A DNA stretch of 11,124 nt from Nitrospina sp. (GCA_018697205.1 JABHTG010000134.1:1-11124); one strand, 5' to 3'. Counted from the stretch's first letter, positions 84 through 11,124 are shown. The notes: generated by a model not told the origin, from the sequence alone. Translations and numbers: made by a program.

Positions 84-854
84 ATGGACGTTACCATAAT
101 CATTTTAATAATAGTTGGCCTGCTTCTTTTTAGCGCATTTAATGTTCTTAGAGAATATGAACGTGGAGTTATCTTTATGCTAGGTCGATACTGGAAAGTT
201 AAGGGACCTGGGCTCATCATAGTCATACCCGGAATTCAAAAAATCGTCAAAGTAAGCCTTCGCACAGTTGTAATGGACGTACCTCCCCAAGATATTATTA
301 CTCTAGACAATGTGACAGTTAAGGTTAACGCAGTTATATATTTTCGGGTAATGGACTCTAAGAAGGCTATCATAGAAGTCGAAGATTACCTTTACGCCAC
401 ATCCCAATTAGCCCAAACTACTCTACGAAGTATACTAGGTCAGAGTCAACTTGATGACCTTTTGTCTAAACGTGATGAAATCAACTCCCAACTTCAAAGA
501 GTGATTGACGAACAAACAGAACCATGGGGCGTTAAAGTTGCTAATGTTGAGGTTAAAAATGTTGATTTACCTCAAGAAATGCAGCGAGCCATAGCTAAAC
601 AGGCAGAAGCAGAGCGGGAACGACGTGCCAAAGTAATTAATGCCATGGGTGAGTTTGAAGCAGCGGAAAAATTAGGCCAAGCTGCAGATACTATAGGACA
701 GCATCCACCAGCGCTACAATTAAGATTTTTACAAACAATTTTAGACATCTCAACTGACCGAAACACAACCACCTTCTTCCCTCTCCCAATGGAACTTTTT
801 GAAGGATTTTACAAACAAAAACAATCTAAAAATGAGAACATAGATAGTAAATAA
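84..854 (+). CDS. SPFH/band-7 family membrane protein (stomatin/prohibitin-like, QmcA/YbbK type) with a single N-terminal TM anchor
   Basis: The N-terminal hydrophobic helix is [19 protein letters not shown]. The canonical SPFH core follows ([13 protein letters not shown]...[12 protein letters not shown]...[24 protein letters not shown]...[15 protein letters not shown]), and then an Ala/Glu/Arg-rich coiled-coil segment ([13 protein letters not shown]). A good SD lies upstream. Confidence 0.9.
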
Positions 855-945
855 GCCAGCTTTTTTCCGTTTATTTATGTTTTTAAGGAGGTCGTTTCCA
901 GCAAAGTAAAAGCTATAAATTAGTTCGCTATCTAAGTCTATTAAT

Positions 946-3900
946 ATGGAATCTCAAACAAAAATCCTAAACTTTCTGAATAGAGTTAGACGACTGCACT
1001 TTTATGCCCATACCCTCCAAGGAACCTATATCCTCCTAGCATATTTTACTGGAGCTGGTCTTTTAGGTTGTTTAATAGGGTTGAGCTATAAACCGGCTGA
1101 TGGATGGATTATTCCAGCAATAAGTTTTTTTTGCATAGGGTTGGTCTATATAGTTTACAAGTATTTCATCAAAATTCTAATCTCGCCGTTTTCCAATGAT
1201 GATGCAGCGCTACTTGCAGAGTCACGTTACCCAGAGGTAAATAACTCTCTCATAAATTCCTACCAATTAAGCAAACACCTTAAAGATTCGCATTTTAAAA
1301 ATACTATTTCCCTAAATTTAATCAAAGAGTTACACAAAAGAACAAGTAAAGAGCTAGACCAAATTGATCCAGCGTTATTAATCAGCCAAAGTAGTATAGT
1401 TTTTCATCGGAACTGGTTTTTTGGCATATTAGCGACGCTTGTACTAACAGTCATTTTTTTTCCCGAGCTTCTAACAAAGGGTTATGAAAATTGGGCTAAT
1501 CCTAGAATATTAGCTAAAACTGAACAAGATAAAATGGCTAATCAAAACCAGACAAAACCTAAGCTAGGTGCTGTCAATTACTCAATTGAATCTCTGGATT
1601 TAAATTTTCATTTTCCTTCATATACGCGAAAGAACTCTGAGCTAATAAAAAATTCTAAAGGAATAATCCATGTCCTACCTGGAACTGAAGTCAATATATC
1701 GGCTAAAACTAACACCAAGATAAATGGAGGAAATCTAATATTTAAAGGCAAAGACTCATTTGCCATGAAAAAAGAAAATAGTAAATACCTAAAGAGCAGT
1801 CTACTAGTCAAAGAAGGAGGGTTTTATCAGTTTAAAATTAAGGGTTCAGATGGTAGTGAGCAGCTGCTCGCAAAAAAATATCCAGTAACACTTGTTAAAG
1901 ATAACCCTCCTAACATTATTTTATTTTTAGCCAACCCTAGGCCAGTATATTTTCTCACTGATAAAGTTGAGTTGTTTTATGAAGGGAGTGATGATTTTGG
2001 CATAAATACAATAGATTTGGTTATTTCCATAAATGGAACAACAGAACGACTTCCAGTTAAAAAAAATAACAACCAAGAAAAGATGGCTAAAGGTAGTTAC
2101 ACCTGGTCTCTCGCGCAAATGTCTATAAATCCTGGCGATGAAGTTAATTACTATTTAGAAATTAATGATAATGATAATATTTTTGGCCCTAACAAAGGTC
2201 AGTCCGAGACCTACAGTTTTAAAATTTTTGACTCTGGAAAAGAGCTGGAAAACCTTGTTGAGATGCAAGAAGATCTTGTTGAAAAAATGATTGCTCTTCT
2301 AGCAACAGGACTAGTAAAAGGAGCATCTCTTAATAATCAACCAAACAACCTCATAGGCTGGAAAGAATTATTAACAGGCAATATTGATGAACTGATCAAA
2401 ATAGTAAGCCTTACACAGAAAGTTTACGACCGAGGAAAAGCAATTGATCAATTTCCTCAGAAATACTTAGACTTACTTAAAAATATTACCAGAGGATTAT
2501 CCCAAATTCGGAAAAATCAAATAAAATCTCTTAGTAACCTTCAAAGTCAAATTCATAAGCCCAACCAAGCAATACTAAAACTCATATCACCATACGCACC
2601 CGCCAATAATGAAATGACGGATCACCTCGAAAAAGATATTTTATTTTTAGTTAAAATGACCAATCAGCAAAAGATAACTAGAGCAAAGACTCTAGAGGAG
2701 GAGTTAAATGACCTCACCCAAAAACTACGAGAAGACTTAGAGAAATCCAACAACGAAAAAATTTCTAAAAACTCGAAAAAGTTAGTTGACAAAATAGATG
2801 AACTCCAAAAAGTTCTACAAAAATTGATGAACCAATTATCACGTCAGACGAATGGTACACCAGATGAGTTTTTAAACCCAGATGCCTTTAAGCGATTAAA
2901 TATTGAAAAGCTTTCTGATGCACTAAAAAAGATGCAGAATATGGTAAGCCGAGGAAAATTTGAAGAAGCTATAGAAGAATTAAAAAAAATGGAAGAAGAC
3001 CTCAAGCTTCTCGCGAATCAGATACATCGTGCTGACTCAGAAAAAGAAAGCTTTTTTGATCCAGAAACAATCAAAATAATAGATAGTAGTATCAAAAAAG
3101 TGGACAAATTAGAGAGGAGACAGCAGAAACTAGCAGAATCAACGACTCAAATAAACCAGGAGCTAAGAGAGCAGCAATCAAAAGCATTTGAAAACCAAAT
3201 TGACAAACTATTCAAGGGTCTACTCCTCGATATAGACTCAATCCGCAGTATTTTTAAAGAAGATGAAAAGTTCCTAGCAAGTCACAAAGCGATGAACCAA
3301 ATAAAGATTTTCATAGATAAAGAAATTGAGATGAAGAAAAAGATAAAACAATTAAGCCAAGCAACTGTCGATTTTTCAGGGTCAGAAAAACTAGACCAAA
3401 GCTTCACTAATCTTAAAGAAGCGCGCAATAAGCTCTCGGAGTTAATCGTAAAGAAAAGTTCACTTAATTTAGATGAGCCTCAGAAATTTAGAGAAACTCT
3501 ACCTCAAATACTTAAAAAATACGACTCCCTCAAAAAGCTGGCTAAGTTACAAGATCTTAATGAATTTAAAGATGTTTTCAAGCAGGCCTACCCAAATGTA
3601 TTGAGATGGCAGTATAAGATACGTACTACACCTAATCTCCGAAATGACATTTCAGACAAATTGGAAGAAGATTTAGCGCGAGTATCTCAGATAAATAACT
3701 CGATATCTAAAAAAATTGGTTCGATGGTACGCTCAATTAGAAAAAACTACAGTTCATCGATAACAAGGAATCAAAAAAAAGAATTAAAACAAATGGGAAA
3801 ACAGGAACAACAACTACAACAGGAAGTACAAAAACTGTCTAAGCAGTTTAATGAGTTAAGCAAAAAAAACCCAATGATACCCTCAGAGCTTTCACAAAGA

Positions 3901-4281
3901 ATGAAAAAAACCGCGCGTCATATGGAACAAGCGGCAACTAACCTTAAAGAACAAAATGTCCGCCAAAGTATCGAATCTGAAAACCAAGCCCTCAAAGGTC
4001 TAAACGAGACAAGCGACTTATTAAGGCAAATGAAAAGCTCTAACGGAGAAACGAAACAAGCAAAAAGACAAAATCCTCGAAAACTCGGGACTGGCAGCAG
4101 CCCAGATTCTCGACGAGGTAGTGCGTCACGAATGAAAAAAGAACACGTGCGACTCCCAGATGAAACCCAGTATAAAGCACCAAAAGAATTCCGCGAAGAA
4201 ATATTAAACGCAATGAAAAAACAAGCGCCTAAAAACTACGAACGTATGATTATGGAATATTATAAGGATCTAGTGCAGTGA
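946..4281 (+). CDS. Giant (1111 aa) membrane-anchored coiled-coil protein of unknown function. It has three N-terminal TM helices, a beta-rich module and a ~600-aa K/E/Q-rich coiled coil; the architecture is reminiscent of DUF4175/TIGR02302-like proteins
   Basis: The ORF is long and uninterrupted. Hydrophobic helices sit at aa ~27-46, 54-79 and 157-176 (nt ~1021-1473). A beta-strand-like region spans aa ~200-430. A heptad-like Lys/Glu/Gln-rich region spans nt ~2233-4066. There is a basic Arg/Ser-rich tail (RQNPRKLGTGSSPDSRRGSASR) and a conserved-looking C-terminus (YERMIMEYYKDL). The family assignment is from memory and not verified. Confidence 0.75.
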   Translation: MESQTKILNFLNRVRRLHFYAHTLQGTYILLAYFTGAGLLGCLIGLSYKPADGWIIPAISFFCIGLVYIVYKYFIKILISPFSNDDAALLAESRYPEVNNSLINSYQLSKHLKDSHFKNTISLNLIKELHKRTSKELDQIDPALLISQSSIVFHRNWFFGILATLVLTVIFFPELLTKGYENWANPRILAKTEQDKMANQNQTKPKLGAVNYSIESLDLNFHFPSYTRKNSELIKNSKGIIHVLPGTEVNISAKTNTKINGGNLIFKGKDSFAMKKENSKYLKSSLLVKEGGFYQFKIKGSDGSEQLLAKKYPVTLVKDNPPNIILFLANPRPVYFLTDKVELFYEGSDDFGINTIDLVISINGTTERLPVKKNNNQEKMAKGSYTWSLAQMSINPGDEVNYYLEINDNDNIFGPNKGQSETYSFKIFDSGKELENLVEMQEDLVEKMIALLATGLVKGASLNNQPNNLIGWKELLTGNIDELIKIVSLTQKVYDRGKAIDQFPQKYLDLLKNITRGLSQIRKNQIKSLSNLQSQIHKPNQAILKLISPYAPANNEMTDHLEKDILFLVKMTNQQKITRAKTLEEELNDLTQKLREDLEKSNNEKISKNSKKLVDKIDELQKVLQKLMNQLSRQTNGTPDEFLNPDAFKRLNIEKLSDALKKMQNMVSRGKFEEAIEELKKMEEDLKLLANQIHRADSEKESFFDPETIKIIDSSIKKVDKLERRQQKLAESTTQINQELREQQSKAFENQIDKLFKGLLLDIDSIRSIFKEDEKFLASHKAMNQIKIFIDKEIEMKKKIKQLSQATVDFSGSEKLDQSFTNLKEARNKLSELIVKKSSLNLDEPQKFRETLPQILKKYDSLKKLAKLQDLNEFKDVFKQAYPNVLRWQYKIRTTPNLRNDISDKLEEDLARVSQINNSISKKIGSMVRSIRKNYSSSITRNQKKELKQMGKQEQQLQQEVQKLSKQFNELSKKNPMIPSELSQRMKKTARHMEQAATNLKEQNVRQSIESENQALKGLNETSDLLRQMKSSNGETKQAKRQNPRKLGTGSSPDSRRGSASRMKKEHVRLPDETQYKAPKEFREEILNAMKKQAPKNYERMIMEYYKDLVQ

Positions 4282-5846
4282 AACATATGTTTTTTATAAT
4301 AAGTACTTGCCTGATTGGATTCAATTTAATCCCCCCACTTATTACATCAGCAATTGGGTTGCCTCAAAAAGAGATATATGCAGGGCACAAACTAATAGAT
4401 AAATGGAATACTAATGCAGCAGAGCAATATGCAAACAACTTACTTAAAAAGTATCCTAAATCAGGAGATGTATATTTCCTTAAAGCGCGCATAGAATTTT
4501 TAAAAGGAAACCATGAAATAGCCTGGGAAATTCTAAAACAAGTAAATAGTAACCATAAAGAAGTACGCGAATTCAAAAACCTCATCTACAACACCTACGA
4601 AGAAACAAAACTATTTACAACAAGCGAATCAAAACATTTTATCTACCGCTATCAAAAAGGACCGGATGAAATACTAGTTCATTATGCTACCCAAGCTATG
4701 GAAAAATCTTATGAGGTTCTAGGAAACATTTTAAATTACTATCCAAAAGAAAAAGTTTTAGTTGAGTTCTATCCGAACCAAAAATCCTTATCTAAAGTTT
4801 CTCCGTTAACTCTTGATGATATAACTACCTCCGGCACAGTCGCTCTCTGTAAATACAATCGAATTATGATTATCTCCCCAGGATCTTTAGTCCGCGGTTA
4901 CAATTGGATGGACACCTTGAGCCACGAATATATTCACTACATACTGACTAAGAAAAGCCAAAACAACCTACCTTTATGGTTACATGAGGGAATAGCAAAG
5001 TATTACGAAGCACGATGGAGAAATAAACACGAATACTTATCGCCCATCATGGAAACAATGCTTGCGGGAGGACTACAAGAAAACTATCTAATATCATTAG
5101 AGAATATGATGCCTTCGCTGGCAAAGCTAAAAACAGCCGAGGATGTTCAACTTGCTTATGCTGAAGTTTCTACAATGATTGAATACATTACCAAAGTTCA
5201 TGGAGATAAAATAATTTCAACTCTTCTGGAAAGATTGGCAAGAGAAGAAACATTTGAATCTGTAATATATACAACTCTAGGAACAAACCTAGATATAATT
5301 CAGGAAAATTGGAAGCACTTTGTAAAACAAAAACAACTCAAAATTATTCCAAGACTCAAGCCGCCAGGAGTTTATTTTAAAACAGACCGTTCGTCTAAAG
5401 AGCCAAGCAAAGAATATCGTGAAATTGATAATAGGAAGAGTCGAGACCTAATATTTTTAGGTGACGTTTTAAAATCAAGGAACTTTTATAAAGCAGCTCT
5501 TATCGAATATCAACGTGCGATCGAACAATCAAAAAATTTCTCCCCCCAACTCCATAACAAACTAGCCAAGACTCATCTAATCACCAGGGAATATAACAAA
5601 GCCAAAGTTATCCTAAATAGAAGCTTACATTACTATCCTATGTTTCACTCTACCCTTGCAAGTTTAGGTGAATTATATTTTGATCTAGGAAAAATAGAAA
5701 AATCTCGGACTTTCTATGAACGAGCGATTAAAATTAACCCTTTCAATCCTTTTGTTCATATGCGACTAATAACGATCTACCAAAAACTAGGGTGGAAAAA
5801 AGAAAAAGCATTACAGGTAAAACTTGCCGGCTATATAAACCACTAA
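4278..5846 (+). CDS. Secreted or periplasmic TPR-repeat protein with a gluzincin-like (peptidase MA-type) HExxH...E zinc-binding motif; putative metalloprotease
   Basis: The start codon GTG at 4278 overlaps the upstream TGA stop (GTGA); an alternative ATG lies at 4287. The N-terminal hydrophobic signal or anchor is FFIISTCLIGFNLIPPLI. A TPR-like helix pair is near the N-terminus, and HEYIH sits at nt 4923-4937 with the downstream Glu at 4986-4988 (WLHEG). C-terminal TPR repeats follow (YKAALIEYQRAIE..., LGELYFDLGKIEKSRTFYERAIKINP). Confidence 0.7.
   Translation: MKHMFFIISTCLIGFNLIPPLITSAIGLPQKEIYAGHKLIDKWNTNAAEQYANNLLKKYPKSGDVYFLKARIEFLKGNHEIAWEILKQVNSNHKEVREFKNLIYNTYEETKLFTTSESKHFIYRYQKGPDEILVHYATQAMEKSYEVLGNILNYYPKEKVLVEFYPNQKSLSKVSPLTLDDITTSGTVALCKYNRIMIISPGSLVRGYNWMDTLSHEYIHYILTKKSQNNLPLWLHEGIAKYYEARWRNKHEYLSPIMETMLAGGLQENYLISLENMMPSLAKLKTAEDVQLAYAEVSTMIEYITKVHGDKIISTLLERLAREETFESVIYTTLGTNLDIIQENWKHFVKQKQLKIIPRLKPPGVYFKTDRSSKEPSKEYREIDNRKSRDLIFLGDVLKSRNFYKAALIEYQRAIEQSKNFSPQLHNKLAKTHLITREYNKAKVILNRSLHYYPMFHSTLASLGELYFDLGKIEKSRTFYERAIKINPFNPFVHMRLITIYQKLGWKKEKALQVKLAGYINH
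4923..4988 (+). other. HExxH + downstream E zincin signature (HEYIH x16 E) inside the TPR protein
   Basis: The motif is read directly from the translation: H216-E217-x-x-H220 ... E237. Confidence 0.6.
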
Positions 5847-5870
5847 TTAACCTTTCAATTAAAACGTAGA

Positions 5871-6860
5871 ATGACTACAAACTTAGAACTAGTAAAAGAG
5901 TTAGTGGATTCCAAAAGTCTCATCATAAAAGAAATTCGTAAAGTGATCGTAGGACAAGACGACGTACTAGAAGATTTGCTGGTAGCTCTTTTTTGCAAAG
6001 GGCATTGCCTTTTTGTTGGTGTCCCCGGCTTGGCAAAAACACTACTTGTAAAAACTCTAGCGAGGGTACTAAACCTTAGTTTTAGTAGAATACAATTTAC
6101 TCCTGACCTGATGCCTTCAGATATTACAGGAACAGATATACTTTATGAAGATCACACAACCAACAAAAGGGGTTTTCGCTTTATAAAAGGTCCGATTTTT
6201 TCAAATATTGTTTTAGCCGATGAAATAAATCGAACCCCACCTAAGACGCAAGCCGCGCTGCTCCAGGCGATGCAGGAACAGCAGGTAACCGTTGGTGGAA
6301 ATACCTATGAACTAGATCAACCTTTTCTAGTTTTTGCGACACAAAATCCCATTGAGCACGAAGGTACTTACCCCTTACCTGAAGCACAACTCGACCGTTT
6401 TATGTTCATAATAAATGTAGGTTATCCTACAATGAAACAAGAAGTGAGAATTGCGATGACCACTACTTCTGGAATACACCCAGAAATGAATATGGTGTTA
6501 AATGCAAAACAGGTGAAAGATTTTCAAAGGCTAGTGCCATGCGTTCCAGTTTCAGAGCATGTCGCTGAGTATGCAGTAAGGCTAGCGCAAAGTTCACGTC
6601 CAAGTAAAAATGGTAGTACTCCCGACTTTATAAACGAGTGGGTTGATTGGGGAGCTGGACCTCGTGCTTCTCAATATCTCCTAATGGGGGCAAAAGCACG
6701 CGCCCTAATGGACAATAGAGTCGCTGCAACTATCGAAGATGTTAAACGTGTAACCCGCCAAGTCCTTGAACACAGAATCATACTTAACTTCAAGGCCAAA
6801 GCCGAAAATATCACCACAAATGATATCATCGAAAAACTTTTAAAATCAATCAAGGCATAA
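5871..6860 (+). CDS. MoxR-family AAA+ ATPase (AAA_3 / MRP subfamily)
   Basis: Walker A GVPGLAKT sits at nt 6018-6041 and Walker B is VLADEINR. The MoxR-diagnostic stretch is PPKTQAALLQAMQEQQVTVGG...FLVFATQNPIEHEGTYPLPEAQLDRF. The length (329 aa) is typical. Confidence 0.92.
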   Translation: MTTNLELVKELVDSKSLIIKEIRKVIVGQDDVLEDLLVALFCKGHCLFVGVPGLAKTLLVKTLARVLNLSFSRIQFTPDLMPSDITGTDILYEDHTTNKRGFRFIKGPIFSNIVLADEINRTPPKTQAALLQAMQEQQVTVGGNTYELDQPFLVFATQNPIEHEGTYPLPEAQLDRFMFIINVGYPTMKQEVRIAMTTTSGIHPEMNMVLNAKQVKDFQRLVPCVPVSEHVAEYAVRLAQSSRPSKNGSTPDFINEWVDWGAGPRASQYLLMGAKARALMDNRVAATIEDVKRVTRQVLEHRIILNFKAKAENITTNDIIEKLLKSIKA

Positions 6861-6861
6861 A

Positions 6862-7500
6862 CTAGGAAGGGCTAATTAGGCCGGCTGTTTTCCAATCAAC
6901 TTTCAACTCTTTAACTACCCCTGAGCGAGTACAATATTTCACATGACCATGTGATTCGCCATACAGAAACAAATCTCGGGTAATCTCAACATCTTGTTTG
7001 CAGTACTCAATAATCTTGTCTATTTTTCCTTCTTTATACCATTGCAAAGAAACCAAACCGTCAGCACTTTTTTTTGCATTCAGTGAGTTTTCTGCTAAAT
7101 GATTAAGGCTAAGTCTGTGGTTAAGTTTGGCCTTAATATCGTCCAACATGTCAAAAGTAGCTATTTCATTAAGGTCAAAATCAGCGTATGGCTGCAATAC
7201 AGTATAATCAAATTTTTTCACATTAAACCCCACAACCAGATCGGCTTTACTAAGTTTTTCGACTAACTGGGAAGCCTCGCTTTCAAGGTAGCTAAAATGC
7301 TTTTGCTCAACACTGTCCCACACTACACCCACAGCAAGCCCCATAAGGTGAATATTTCCCCACCCTCCAACGTCGTCAGCGCTTTTTTGAGTTTCCAAGT
7401 CAAAATAAAGCACACGATACGAATTCAACGCTTTAGGGATAGTTTTAGGCTCTATTTTATTCTTTATGGGGTCTTCAAACAGGTCCAACTGCTCTGACAT
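6862..7500 (-). CDS. DEDDy-type 3'-5' exonuclease (DnaQ/RNase D/PolB-exo-like fold), standalone 212 aa
   Basis: Exo I is FDLET (D34, E36). Exo II is FNVKKFD (D98). Exo III is YCKQD (Y166-x3-D170). These are read from the reverse-strand translation. Confidence 0.7.
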   Translation of the reverse strand: MSEQLDLFEDPIKNKIEPKTIPKALNSYRVLYFDLETQKSADDVGGWGNIHLMGLAVGVVWDSVEQKHFSYLESEASQLVEKLSKADLVVGFNVKKFDYTVLQPYADFDLNEIATFDMLDDIKAKLNHRLSLNHLAENSLNAKKSADGLVSLQWYKEGKIDKIIEYCKQDVEITRDLFLYGESHGHVKYCTRSGVVKELKVDWKTAGLISPS

Positions 7501-7792: not shown

Positions 7793-9415
7793 ATGGCACA
7801 AAACGCAGTATTTGGCATAAATTCTAATCTAGACACTCAGGATATCATCAATAAGATGGTTTCACTGGAAGCTCGGTCGATGGATCTTATCGAAGCCAAA
7901 AAACAAATAGAGCAGCAAAAGTTGTCTAGTTTTCAGGAATTAAAAAATAGGTTACAAACGTTCAAAAGCGTTGTAACCACATTAAATACCGAAAGCCGCT
8001 TTATAGTTAATAAAAGCTCTTTTTCAAATAGCAGCTCTTCAGACAGCAATAAAGTCGTAGATATAACTACCACCAGTTCAGCAACTTCTGGCACATATTC
8101 ACTAATAGTTAATAACCTAGCTACTGAAACAAAAATTATTTCAGAAGGCTTTCCTACTACTACTTCAGAAGTAACAATGAGTAGCTTAGTTGTCACCGTT
8201 GGCGGAGTTGCAAAAACAATTAATGTCGATAGTTCAAATAATACGGTAGATGGCCTAAGGCTAGCTATTAACAACCTAGGGCTTGATGTGAAGGCATCTT
8301 TTTTAAATGATGGCGATGATACTAATCCAATTCGACTTCTTATTTCGGGTAATTTAACTGGAGCAAGCGGGGCTGTAACGGTGGTTAATCCTGTTAGTGG
8401 AATAGGAACAGGAGCATTATCAGGTATAGACTTCAAAACAAAACAATATGCCCAAAATGCTAGTTTTACAATAGATGGTGTTGCTGTTAGTAAATCGTCT
8501 AATACTGTTTCAGACGTTATTAGCGGCGCGGCCTTAAAGCTGCAATCAGCTGGTTCAGGAACTATCTCTCTTTCCACAGATACAGATGCGATAACCAGCA
8601 AAGTCTCTGACTTTGTAGATGAATACAATGAAATTTCTTTATTCCTTCGTGAACAGCTAGCGTTAGATCCAGAGTCTGAGGAGACGGGTGTGTTATTTGG
8701 CAATTTTGCCGTACAAAATTTACAACAAATCCTTCGAAGTTCAATAAGTAGTGAAGTAACTGGTATTAGCGGTGACTATAAATACCTTTCGCAAATCGGT
8801 ATTACCACTGAGTCAGACGGGTCTCTAGTTTTAGATACCGATGACCTTTCTGAAGCATTAATAGACGACATACAGAATGTAAGCCAGCTGTTTTCGAGTA
8901 AAGGAACCGTAACACATTCATCTGTAGCTTATGTCGGCTTCACTAGCGATACAGAGCCGGGATACTACGACTTAAAAGTAGCTAACGGAGTCCCTCAACT
9001 GAGTAACTCAGGGGCCGCTACCTTTGTGAACGCTTCCGGATCTGGAAATTTTTGGGCAGGTTCCTCAGGAGATGCAACTGGCCTTAACTTTCGTATCAGT
9101 AATTTATCTAATGGTGATTATGGACAAGTATGGCTATCAATCGGAGTCGCAGAAATTCTTAATCGCCAGTTGGAGAATATGGTTGACTCTTCATTAAATG
9201 GCCCCTTGGTCACAGAAGTTGACACGATCACCGAGACAGTTGACGATTTCAATATAACACTACTTAACCAAGCAGAACGTCTACTTGAATTCGAAGAAAG
9301 CCTTAAAGCAAAATTTTCCAACTTAGAAATTGTCCTGGGAAGACTTAACGCACAAAGAGATACCTTTAATAGCTCTTTAGCAGGAATTCAAAATATTTTC
9401 TCTCAGAAAAAATAA
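7793..9415 (+). CDS. fliD: Flagellar filament cap protein FliD (hook-associated protein 2)
   Basis: The N-terminal FliD_N-like segment is GINSNLDTQDIINKMVSLEARSMDLIEAKKQIEQQKLSSFQELKNRLQTFKSVVTTLN. The central domain is Ser/Thr-rich and variable. The C-terminal FliD_C-like helix is KAKFSNLEIVLGRLNAQRDTFNSSLAGIQ. Confidence 0.9.
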   Translation: MAQNAVFGINSNLDTQDIINKMVSLEARSMDLIEAKKQIEQQKLSSFQELKNRLQTFKSVVTTLNTESRFIVNKSSFSNSSSSDSNKVVDITTTSSATSGTYSLIVNNLATETKIISEGFPTTTSEVTMSSLVVTVGGVAKTINVDSSNNTVDGLRLAINNLGLDVKASFLNDGDDTNPIRLLISGNLTGASGAVTVVNPVSGIGTGALSGIDFKTKQYAQNASFTIDGVAVSKSSNTVSDVISGAALKLQSAGSGTISLSTDTDAITSKVSDFVDEYNEISLFLREQLALDPESEETGVLFGNFAVQNLQQILRSSISSEVTGISGDYKYLSQIGITTESDGSLVLDTDDLSEALIDDIQNVSQLFSSKGTVTHSSVAYVGFTSDTEPGYYDLKVANGVPQLSNSGAATFVNASGSGNFWAGSSGDATGLNFRISNLSNGDYGQVWLSIGVAEILNRQLENMVDSSLNGPLVTEVDTITETVDDFNITLLNQAERLLEFEESLKAKFSNLEIVLGRLNAQRDTFNSSLAGIQNIFSQKK

Positions 9416-10092: not shown

Positions 10093-11124
10093 ATGAATAT
10101 TCACGAATATCAGGCAAAGGAAGTCCTTGCAAAACACGGTGTAGCTGTTCCTAAGGGTGTAGTCATCGATAACCCAGATAAAGCAGAAGATGTTTCTCGC
10201 CAACTAGGAACAGATGTTGTCGTAGTAAAAGCCCAAATTCATGCTGGAGGACGAGGTAAAGGCGGAGGAGTTAAGCTTGCCAATAGCCCAAAAGAAGCCA
10301 AAGTTCATGCAAAAAAAATAATAGGAATGCAATTAGTAACACCCCAAACTGGAACAGAGGGCCGAAAGGTCAAAAAGATTCTAATAGAAGAAGGTATGCC
10401 TATTGATAAAGAACTCTATCTAGGCATCCTTCTGGATAGGCAGAGTAGTCGTGTAATGATTATGGCAAGCGAAGCTGGCGGTATGGCAATCGAAGAGGTC
10501 GCCGAAGAAACTCCGGAAAAAATTATCAAAGAAATAATCGACCCTATTATTGGAGTTAAACCTTATCTAGCTAGAAAAATAGCATTTGCTCTCAATGTAA
10601 AAGGAAACGCTCTTAAACAAATGATTCCTTTAATAATCAATCTTTATCAGGCTTTTCTTAAAGAAGATTGCGATATGCTAGAAATCAACCCTCTTGTCAT
10701 AACAAAAGACGAACGAGTCCTTGTCCTTGATGCAAAAGTTAATATTGACAGTAATGCCCTCTACCGCCAAAAAGAAATTCTTGCATACCGAGATCTAGAT
10801 GAAGAAGATCCCATGGAAGTGGAAGCCAGTAAATTCGACTTAAACTATATTAAACTTGATGGAAATATTGGTTGTATGGTCAATGGGGCTGGCTTAGCCA
10901 TGGCAACTATGGACATAATCAAACATTCAGGTGGCGAACCCGCGAACTTCTTGGATGTTGGAGGCGGAGCTGATGAGGAAAAAATTGAAAATGGATTTCG
11001 CATTCTACTATCAGACCCGCATGTAAAAGGAATATTTATTAATATATTTGGCGGCATTTTACGTTGTGACATTCTGGCTCGAGGTGTTGAGATCGCAGCC
11101 AAAAAACTAAAAGTAAAAATCCCA
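10093..11124 (+). CDS. sucC: Succinyl-CoA synthetase (ADP-forming) beta subunit, 5' partial (344 codons, runs off the window end)
   Basis: The product begins [22 protein letters not shown]...[20 protein letters not shown] and includes the ATP-grasp region. [17 protein letters not shown]...NFLDVGGGA and [13 protein letters not shown] are diagnostic of SucC. The ORF is not in the six-frame track because there is no stop within the window. Confidence 0.9.

Follow-up and report, generated by a model that had tools for sequence, protein, structure and literature searches.

A DUF4175 protein, an exported TPR-gluzincin and a MoxR-type ATPase form a conserved three-gene block in Nitrospina sp. that is predicted to be a reduced relative of Bat-like envelope operons

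The window, an 11,124-nucleotide (nt) stretch of DNA from Nitrospina sp. (GCA_018697205.1 JABHTG010000134.1:1-11124), carries four consecutive genes on the positive strand, encoding a stomatin-type SPFH protein, a giant membrane protein of the DUF4175 family, a putative gluzincin metallopeptidase flanked by tetratricopeptide repeats (TPR), and a MoxR-type AAA+ ATPase (Table 1). An earlier description made from the DNA by itself, here called the sequence-only reading, had grouped these genes into one cluster with spacings of 91 nt between the SPFH and giant genes, a 4-nt GTGA overlap between the giant and peptidase genes, and 24 nt between the peptidase gene and moxR. All three junctions are recovered when the sequence is read again, as are the domain calls, with Pfam matches to Band_7, DUF4175, TPR together with Peptidase_MA_2, and AAA_3. 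The cluster is bounded in this genome by a divergent gene upstream and, as had been described, ends downstream at a convergent gene, here encoding a 3′-5′ exonuclease, whose stop codon lies 1 nt past that of moxR (6860-6862); no terminator-like site separates the two, so that transcripts from opposite strands would overlap. Searches of the positive strand between the four genes found no promoter-like or terminator-like site, the one terminator-like match lying inside moxR, and no Rfam RNA family was matched in the window.

Conservation of this arrangement was surveyed with the peptidase as anchor. An alignment of 40 peptidase sequences was scanned against one genome per GTDB species, by which 566 relatives were confirmed and 80 loci kept, and open reading frames (ORFs) were called in 88 loci and compared with the four window proteins; single loci are cited by number (L001 and so on). 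The lineages represented are Nitrospinota, Brocadiales and other Planctomycetota, Myxococcota (including Bradymonadia), Binatia, Thermodesulfobacteriota, 'Deltaproteobacteria', Udaeobacter (Verrucomicrobiota) and bacterium HR37. Within Nitrospinota, the giant gene lies directly upstream of the peptidase gene with a 4-nt overlap in 40 of 40 loci, and moxR directly downstream in 39 of 39. Among the other phyla, the giant gene directly precedes the peptidase gene in about 33 of 35 informative loci (30 called automatically, and L070, L076 and L053 by inspection), the only exceptions being two Brocadia peptidase copies (L060 and L065). This pair recurs in Brocadiales, Myxococcota, Binatia, Thermodesulfobacteriota, Verrucomicrobiota (Udaeobacter), Bradymonadia and HR37, with a gap that is mostly between -8 and +28 nt, and the two genes are likely to be translationally coupled at the overlap seen in the window. 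MoxR adjoins the peptidase in 12 of 36 loci outside Nitrospinota, and is found downstream of it in Binatia, Thermodesulfobacteriota, Udaeobacter, Bradymonadia, HR37 and deltaproteobacterial metagenome-assembled genomes (MAGs); the junction between the peptidase gene and moxR ranges from -4 to 154 nt. Where gene order survives over large evolutionary distances, the genes are usually functionally coupled. Conservation in several phyla lifts the arrangement above chance for three of the four genes, and the conserved unit, judged by gene order, is the DUF4175 gene, the exported TPR-gluzincin gene and moxR, three genes and not four, a triad shared by at least six named lineages of bacteria. The recurrence of all four genes across taxa, which had been suggested as a check, therefore holds for the giant, peptidase and moxR genes and fails for the SPFH gene, so that the cluster as a whole is not refuted.

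In seven loci (L071, L077, L079, L083, L084, L086 and L087), moxR is followed on the same strand by a gene for a DUF58 protein (176 bits) and then by one for a 700-aa BatA_N and VWA_2 protein. These extended loci also include a DUF4159 gene in four cases and, in three, a gene for a GATase1_like protein of 753 aa; most of the other contigs stop short of this point. The full block, running from DUF4175 through the peptidase, MoxR and DUF58 to BatA_N/VWA, was seen in Binatia, 'Deltaproteobacteria' and Bradymonadia, and the triad without DUF58 in HR37 (L073) and a deltaproteobacterial MAG (L085). The window MoxR is 56-61% identical to those encoded ahead of DUF58 in other phyla. In agreement with the sequence-only reading, which had remarked on the missing VWA/DUF58 partner, the window has no DUF58, BatA/VWA, DUF4159 or GATase1-like gene and the Nitrospinota loci fetched have none within 10 kb, BatD also being absent over that distance at the Nitrospinota locus. 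The same-strand genes that follow moxR in Nitrospinota loci lacking the exonuclease gene hide no VWA or DUF58 protein and encode NUDIX, DUF6603, Amidase_2 and type II secretion system (T2SS) E/F proteins. Since the same block forms the 5′ part of a MoxR-DUF58-BatA_N/VWA-DUF4159-GATase1_like operon in other phyla, the Nitrospinota locus is best described, by its gene content, as a reduced variant of the MoxR-DUF58-VWA 'Bat-like' envelope operon family and not as a full member. The option of a Bat-like (Bacteroides aerotolerance) MoxR system with a non-canonical set of partners, which had been named as an alternative, is thus borne out by the seven loci in which the block is contiguous with DUF58 and BatA_N/VWA.

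Bat-like operons are already known and mechanistically obscure, and the DUF4175-peptidase-MoxR triad is supported by gene order as a sharpened, three-gene conserved module in their vicinity. In PMC5700661, MoxR/DUF58/VWA operons of this type are described as conserved and without clear function, and disruption of one in Rhizobium as causing envelope and morphology defects (citing Vanderlinde 2011). Like the triad, the known operons of this kind (Bacteroides fragilis BatI aerotolerance, Borrelia bb0170-bb0176, Leptospira bat and Rhizobium leguminosarum RL3499-RL3502) combine the same AAA_3-type MoxR with membrane and periplasmic partners that include TPR proteins; the phenotypes reported for these operons are envelope-related (PMC5700661). 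In contrast to them, the Nitrospinota TPR protein bears an active-looking gluzincin domain and its gene is probably translationally coupled to that of the DUF4175 protein. To our knowledge, the Bat TPR proteins BatC and BatE are not peptidases. A general logic of MoxR-VWA remodelling is set out by the work on NorQ/NorD (PMC9976466, PMC13036017). The sequence-only reading had not recognised the combination as a characterised system, and the literature searched on DUF4175, Peptidase_MA_2/PF13485, DUF4159, and Nitrospina with MoxR likewise gave no description of it.

Table 1. Features of the gene cluster and its borders, in window coordinates unless a survey locus is named.
Feature	Position	Strand	Basis or remark
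Stomatin-type SPFH gene, 256 aa	84-854	+	ORF call and Pfam Band_7
SPFH protein, N-terminal transmembrane helix (TM)	90-146	+	
SPFH domain	147-653	+	
Giant DUF4175-family gene, 1111 aa	946-4281	+	ORF call and Pfam DUF4175
Giant protein, TM1	1030-1086	+	Hydropathy
Giant protein, TM2	1102-1170	+	Hydropathy
Giant protein, conserved loop rich in Lys and Arg, about 80 aa, predicted cytoplasmic	1171-1416	+	
Giant protein, TM3	1417-1473	+	Hydropathy
Giant protein, two Ig/FN3-like beta-sandwich domains	1585-2229	+	AlphaFold2 (AF2) model
Giant protein, helical region, about 17 helices	2233-4053	+	AF2 model
Giant protein, disordered basic linker	4054-4182	+	AF2 model
Giant protein, conserved C-terminal helices	4183-4278	+	
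GTGA start/stop overlap of giant and peptidase genes	4278-4281	+	Read from sequence; GTG start at 4278, TGA stop at 4279-4281
TPR / clan-MA gluzincin / TPR gene, 522 aa	4278-5846	+	ORF call and Pfam
Peptidase, signal or anchor	4278-4361	+	
Peptidase, N-terminal TPR	4365-4607	+	
Peptidase, catalytic domain	4614-5327	+	Peptidase_MA_2
Peptidase, HEYIH (residues 216-220)	4923-4937	+	Motif reading
Peptidase, third zinc ligand E237, in WLHEGIA	within 4977-4997	+	
Peptidase, C-terminal TPR	5433-5837	+	
MoxR-type AAA+ ATPase gene, 329 aa	5871-6860	+	ORF call and Pfam AAA_3 and AAA_lid_2
MoxR, Walker A GVPGLAKT	6018-6041	+	Motif reading
MoxR, Walker B LADEINR	6213-6233	+	Motif reading
MoxR, sensor 1 ATQNP	6336-6350	+	Motif reading
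MoxR, LDRF	6390-6401	+	Motif reading
MoxR, sensor 2 GAGPRA	6651-6668	+	Motif reading
Convergent 3′-5′ exonuclease gene	6862-7500	-	Borders moxR
Gene X	L001 9092-9862	-	About 55 nt left of window position 1; also L014 13406-14263

The peptidase carries a Pfam Peptidase_MA_2 match (4e-14) with TPR repeats on both sides. The separate HEYIH...E gluzincin noticed at first is upheld: H216, E217, H220 and E237 are invariant in the alignment of 40 peptidase sequences. A HMMER scan covering 1.84 billion cluster representatives returned 419 relatives at E < 1e-30 that have the same length and architecture and are 30-39% identical; the closest named relatives are from Candidatus Nitromaritima and Nitrospinaceae, which places the source of the window, a MAG, among the marine Nitrospinota. 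The catalytic fold matches MA-clan enzymes of families M30 and M9 in fold searches, and a profile search of the PDB with the peptidase alignment returned TPR proteins only. The conserved HExxH motif, the downstream glutamate and the thermolysin-like fold together identify a gluzincin of clan MA(E), with predicted activity. Nearly all homologues begin with a classical Sec signal peptide with AxA-type cleavage sites, and the hydrophobic N-terminus of the window protein is longer than these and could serve as either a signal peptide or a signal anchor; the peptidase is predicted to be Sec-exported and extracytoplasmic. A lipoprotein N-terminus (IISTC) was considered for the window protein and rejected, as the -1 residue is T, only 10 residues precede the cysteine, and the homologues have AxA signal peptidase I sites.

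A functional and architectural resemblance, and only that, exists to BepA (YfgC) of E. coli, a periplasmic TPR-containing M48 zinc metalloprotease that acts in outer-membrane protein quality control; both are Sec-exported HExxH metalloproteases fused to TPR repeats, and both are placed in the same compartment. The window peptidase differs in that its catalytic domain belongs to Peptidase_MA_2, with a fold nearest to M30/M9 and no Pfam Peptidase_M48 match, in having TPR repeats on both sides of the catalytic domain, and in the linkage of its gene to a DUF4175 scaffold and MoxR.

The giant protein matches Pfam DUF4175 at 8e-19 overall (67.6 bits against a cutoff of 27.3), and with the protein split for the search the match is collinear at both ends, residues 213-425 corresponding to profile positions 192-390 and residues 941-1091 to positions 655-806. 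This collinear match, the N-terminal transmembrane helices and the long, predicted extracytoplasmic C-terminal part mark it as a DUF4175 (PF13779 / TIGR02302-like) protein, and it matched no NCBIfam model. Its first two transmembrane helices are separated by a very short loop and the third follows a loop of about 80 residues. Counts of lysine and arginine in more than 60 homologues give 4-8 at the N-terminus, 8-16 in the 80-residue loop and 0-2 in the short loop. The basic N-terminus and 80-residue loop and the Lys/Arg-poor short loop indicate an N-in/C-out topology, with approximately 930 residues predicted to be periplasmic.

An AF2 model of the giant protein (mean predicted local distance difference test, pLDDT, 70; predicted template modelling score, pTM, 0.42) comprises a helical cytoplasmic loop and a disordered linker, beta-sandwich domains at residues 214-316 and 323-428, approximately 17 helices of 16-55 residues (most of 24-42) at residues 430-1036, a disordered basic stretch at 1037-1079 (the basic linker of Table 1), and two C-terminal helices. 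The 1111-aa coiled-coil membrane protein of the sequence-only reading is accordingly retained as a membrane-anchored and helical protein and given up as one long coil, having three transmembrane helices, two Ig/FN3-like domains and a series of separate helices. When the model was compared with PDB structures by Foldseek, the only matches were to generic FN3/Ig tandems and, non-specifically, to long helices (e.g., those of dynein). Several motifs are kept across phyla, including residues 88-107 of the cytoplasmic loop, FPsYT, pdEFlN, an acidic E..DND..GP motif in the second beta domain and a C-terminal tail of the form YkaP..FR.eIL…Yy..L. Word-indexed searches with the N-terminal 465 aa and the C-terminal 182 aa recovered Nitrospinota fragments only. 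No full-length protein came back, the identical one included, and this points to a limit of the method in length or indexing rather than to biology.

The one functional remark found on DUF4175 concerns the Acinetobacter baumannii division protein AdvA, which is essential and is annotated with DUF4175 at its N-terminus (PMC7481262). By its description, AdvA shares with the giant protein the Pfam DUF4175 assignment and two transmembrane helices near the N-terminus; it differs in that DUF4175 is limited to its N-terminal part and in that no peptidase or MoxR linkage is reported for it. A ZorA-like defence component was also considered for the giant protein, where PADLOC gave a weak match to the ZorA tail (E 1.8e-5) over residues 719-1028 (nt 3100-4030), and was set aside as a product of long-helix composition; with only this and a weak DolB match of MoxR, a defence system was rejected.

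MoxR matches Pfam AAA_3 at 5.5e-63 (211 bits) and AAA_lid_2 at 58.5 bits. Together with Walker A and B motifs, sensor 1, an arginine finger and sensor 2, these matches assign it, on sequence features, to the MoxR-type AAA+ ATPases. The nearest solved relative is PDB 2r44 (E 2.6e-80), which is annotated just as an uncharacterized protein. The protein has no signal peptide and no convincing transmembrane segment, its sole hydrophobic segment overlapping the Walker A region, and it is predicted to be cytoplasmic.

These placements bear on the principal proposal of the sequence-only reading, a split, FtsH-HflKC-like machine of all four genes in which an SPFH cage scaffolds a membrane complex where a MoxR ATPase delivers substrates to a separate HExxH protease, with the giant protein as the bridge. 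The likeness is real as a parts list, SPFH, AAA+ ATPase and HExxH zinc-protease components all being encoded at the locus along with membrane anchors, and it is helped by the co-directional order of the four genes, by the lack of a terminator-like site between the SPFH and giant genes, and by an SPFH gene that lies directly upstream on the same strand in 21 of 34 Nitrospinota loci and is still adjacent, convergent and downstream, in two others (L012 and L014). Yet the SPFH gene is absent from the remaining 11 of these loci and from all 26 informative loci outside Nitrospinota. The ATPase of the locus is of the MoxR clade, whereas FtsH is a classical-clade unfoldase fused to its protease, and the locus ATPase and protease are predicted to reside in different compartments, cytoplasm and periplasm. 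With the peptidase exported and MoxR cytoplasmic, the ATPase could not feed the protease in the manner of FtsH, which makes the arrangement topologically implausible, and we regard this machine as highly improbable.

The SPFH protein itself points the same way. It has a Pfam Band_7 match of 6e-38 and, against the PDB, matches human stomatin and PH1511 at E ~1e-65, HflK at 1e-10 and HflC at 1e-6, and its NCBIfam scores for hflK (72 bits) and hflC (63 bits) fall below the cutoffs of 159 and 134, so that by similarity it is of the stomatin type and not of the HflK/C type; the positive-inside pattern (MD-TM-LREYERG...) would put its SPFH domain in the cytoplasm. Upstream of the SPFH gene in this genome are a divergent gene, X, and then DUF423, TatD/radical-SAM and MetRS genes. 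In L012 and L014, the order is giant, peptidase and moxR followed by SPFH (-), X (+), DUF423 (-), TatD (-) and MetRS (-), the triad being inverted as a block and the SPFH gene left with X and the upstream genes. Only the SPFH gene is missing from L044, which reads TatD-DUF423-X-giant-peptidase-moxR, and in approximately ten Nitrospinota loci the entire upstream flank is swapped for unrelated genes (TolC-like OEP, PBP-like and histidine kinase). The gap between the SPFH and giant genes ranges from 46 to 574 nt across Nitrospinota loci. As it is absent outside Nitrospinota, optional within the phylum and stays with other genes when the triad inverts, the SPFH gene is a lineage-specific local neighbour and not a core component, although in this genome a single transcript may cover it and the triad.

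Gene X encodes a protein of 256-285 aa with no Pfam family and one weak NPCBM_assoc match; of 24 Nitrospinota loci, 21 have it beside the stomatin gene, and it remains with that gene when the triad is inverted. The window SPFH protein, close in sequence to PH1511 and human stomatin, resembles those of stomatin-NfeD operons, whose partners are known as stomatin operon partner proteins (STOPP). Unlike in those operons, no NfeD is adjacent, none of the genes neighbouring the SPFH gene having a Pfam match to it, and the conserved partner is the divergent gene X; X may be the true stomatin partner instead of NfeD. An identical SPFH protein is encoded on contig JABGTZ010000122.1 of GCA_018646845.1 and on several marine metagenome contigs.

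The functional unit is, in our assessment, probably an envelope module of three genes, with a DUF4175 scaffold, a TPR-gluzincin and MoxR as its parts and the SPFH protein incidental to it. The tight coupling of the first two genes and the two peptide-binding TPR modules of the peptidase suggest a stoichiometric DUF4175-peptidase complex. The DUF4175 protein would serve as a periplasmic scaffold that holds the TPR-protease, docking being achieved by TPR binding of a scaffold segment, plausibly the conserved C-terminal tail, and the protease would process or quality-control envelope proteins in a manner similar to BepA. MoxR would act at the cytoplasmic face as a chaperone-like remodeller that governs the assembly or activity of the complex, either directly through the conserved cytoplasmic loop of the DUF4175 protein or through DUF58/VWA adaptors encoded elsewhere. 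A narrower version, a VWA-free inside-out regulator, has a MoxR hexamer on the DUF4175 loop whose ATP-driven remodelling, passed through the transmembrane helices and the periplasmic helices, switches the tethered TPR-gluzincin on or off. It would be a MoxR counterpart of FtsEX-EnvC, in which a helical adaptor relays control from an ATPase in the cytoplasm to a hydrolase in the periplasm; both this version and its analogy we hold to be doubtful.

Several observations weigh against the three-gene envelope module. More than 20 Brocadiales loci and some in Myxococcota have the giant-peptidase pair with no MoxR next to it, and MoxR may therefore not be obligatory. A physical tie of MoxR to the giant protein or the peptidase is an inference, and the docking of TPR on the tail is a proposal. 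The predicted topology of the giant protein derives from hydropathy and the positive-inside rule, the helical part of its AF2 model is of low confidence as judged by the pTM given above, and its C-terminal region is part of the general Pfam DUF4175 model rather than particular to peptidase-linked members. Neither a terminator nor a promoter was seen in the 91-nt gap that would set the SPFH gene apart from the other three.

The Brocadiales and Myxococcota loci are also the natural ground for a smaller module that consists of the giant-peptidase pair only, in which the adjacency of MoxR is a remnant of a longer ancestral operon and MoxR serves unrelated clients with unlinked DUF58/VWA proteins. 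The invariant 4-nt overlap of the pair is far tighter than the variable peptidase-moxR junction, as this explanation would have it. MoxR is, on the other hand, immediately downstream in every informative Nitrospinota locus and also in several other phyla, and the predicted cytoplasmic, conserved loop of the giant protein needs a cytoplasmic partner; we therefore consider a pair-only module unlikely, and keep MoxR within the envelope module.

A flagellum-associated function, such as a protease that processes flagellin or hook protein, is brought to mind by fliD and fliS, which lie 0.9 kb downstream of the cluster beyond the exonuclease gene, and by a sub-threshold NCBIfam flagellinolysin match of the peptidase (E 3e-4, 20 bits against a cutoff of 205). 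This match is limited to the generic HExxH region, however, and the intervening exonuclease gene is oppositely oriented. The adjacency to fliD is confined to Nitrospinota, where other genes intervene in L007, L008, L013 and L016, and the neighbours in other phyla are DUF58/BatA or unrelated genes. The adjacency had been judged probably coincidental from the outset, its absence outside Nitrospinota agrees with that view, and a flagellar role is scarcely credible.

Of the bacterial gene clusters that still lack a mechanism, the MoxR/Bat-like operons are among the most widespread. The pairing described here places a DUF4175 scaffold and an exported TPR-gluzincin, as a tight pair, on MoxR/Bat-like operons in many phyla, with reduced versions kept by Nitrospinota, which are major marine nitrite oxidisers, and by the anammox Brocadiales. 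Periplasmic proteolysis thereby becomes a candidate enzymatic output of the operon family, which can be studied in a minimal form of three genes, and the tempting analogy to FtsH-HflKC is removed as unsupported.

Variants of the locus were seen in single genomes. In one Planctomycetota MAG (L053, 7312-9896), approximately 2.5 kb is inserted between the giant and peptidase genes, and the Brocadia assembly WYAU01 (L055, L058) carries two separate giant-peptidase pairs. One Nitrospinaceae genome (L038, 12708-13490, positive strand) has a gene for a peptidoglycan amidase (Amidase_2 and PG_binding_1) right after moxR on the same strand, a single case that hints at a cell-wall connection.

Past fliS, the window ends within an ATP-citrate-lyase-like gene (ATP-grasp_2, Citrate_synth_N and Ligase_CoA; 10093-11124, positive strand), of which only the start is present and which is consistent with the reductive tricarboxylic acid cycle of Nitrospinota. 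An antisense ORF with a TTG start inside fliD (7933-8703, negative strand) would encode 256 aa rich in Ser, Thr and Leu, and is almost certainly a spurious shadow ORF.

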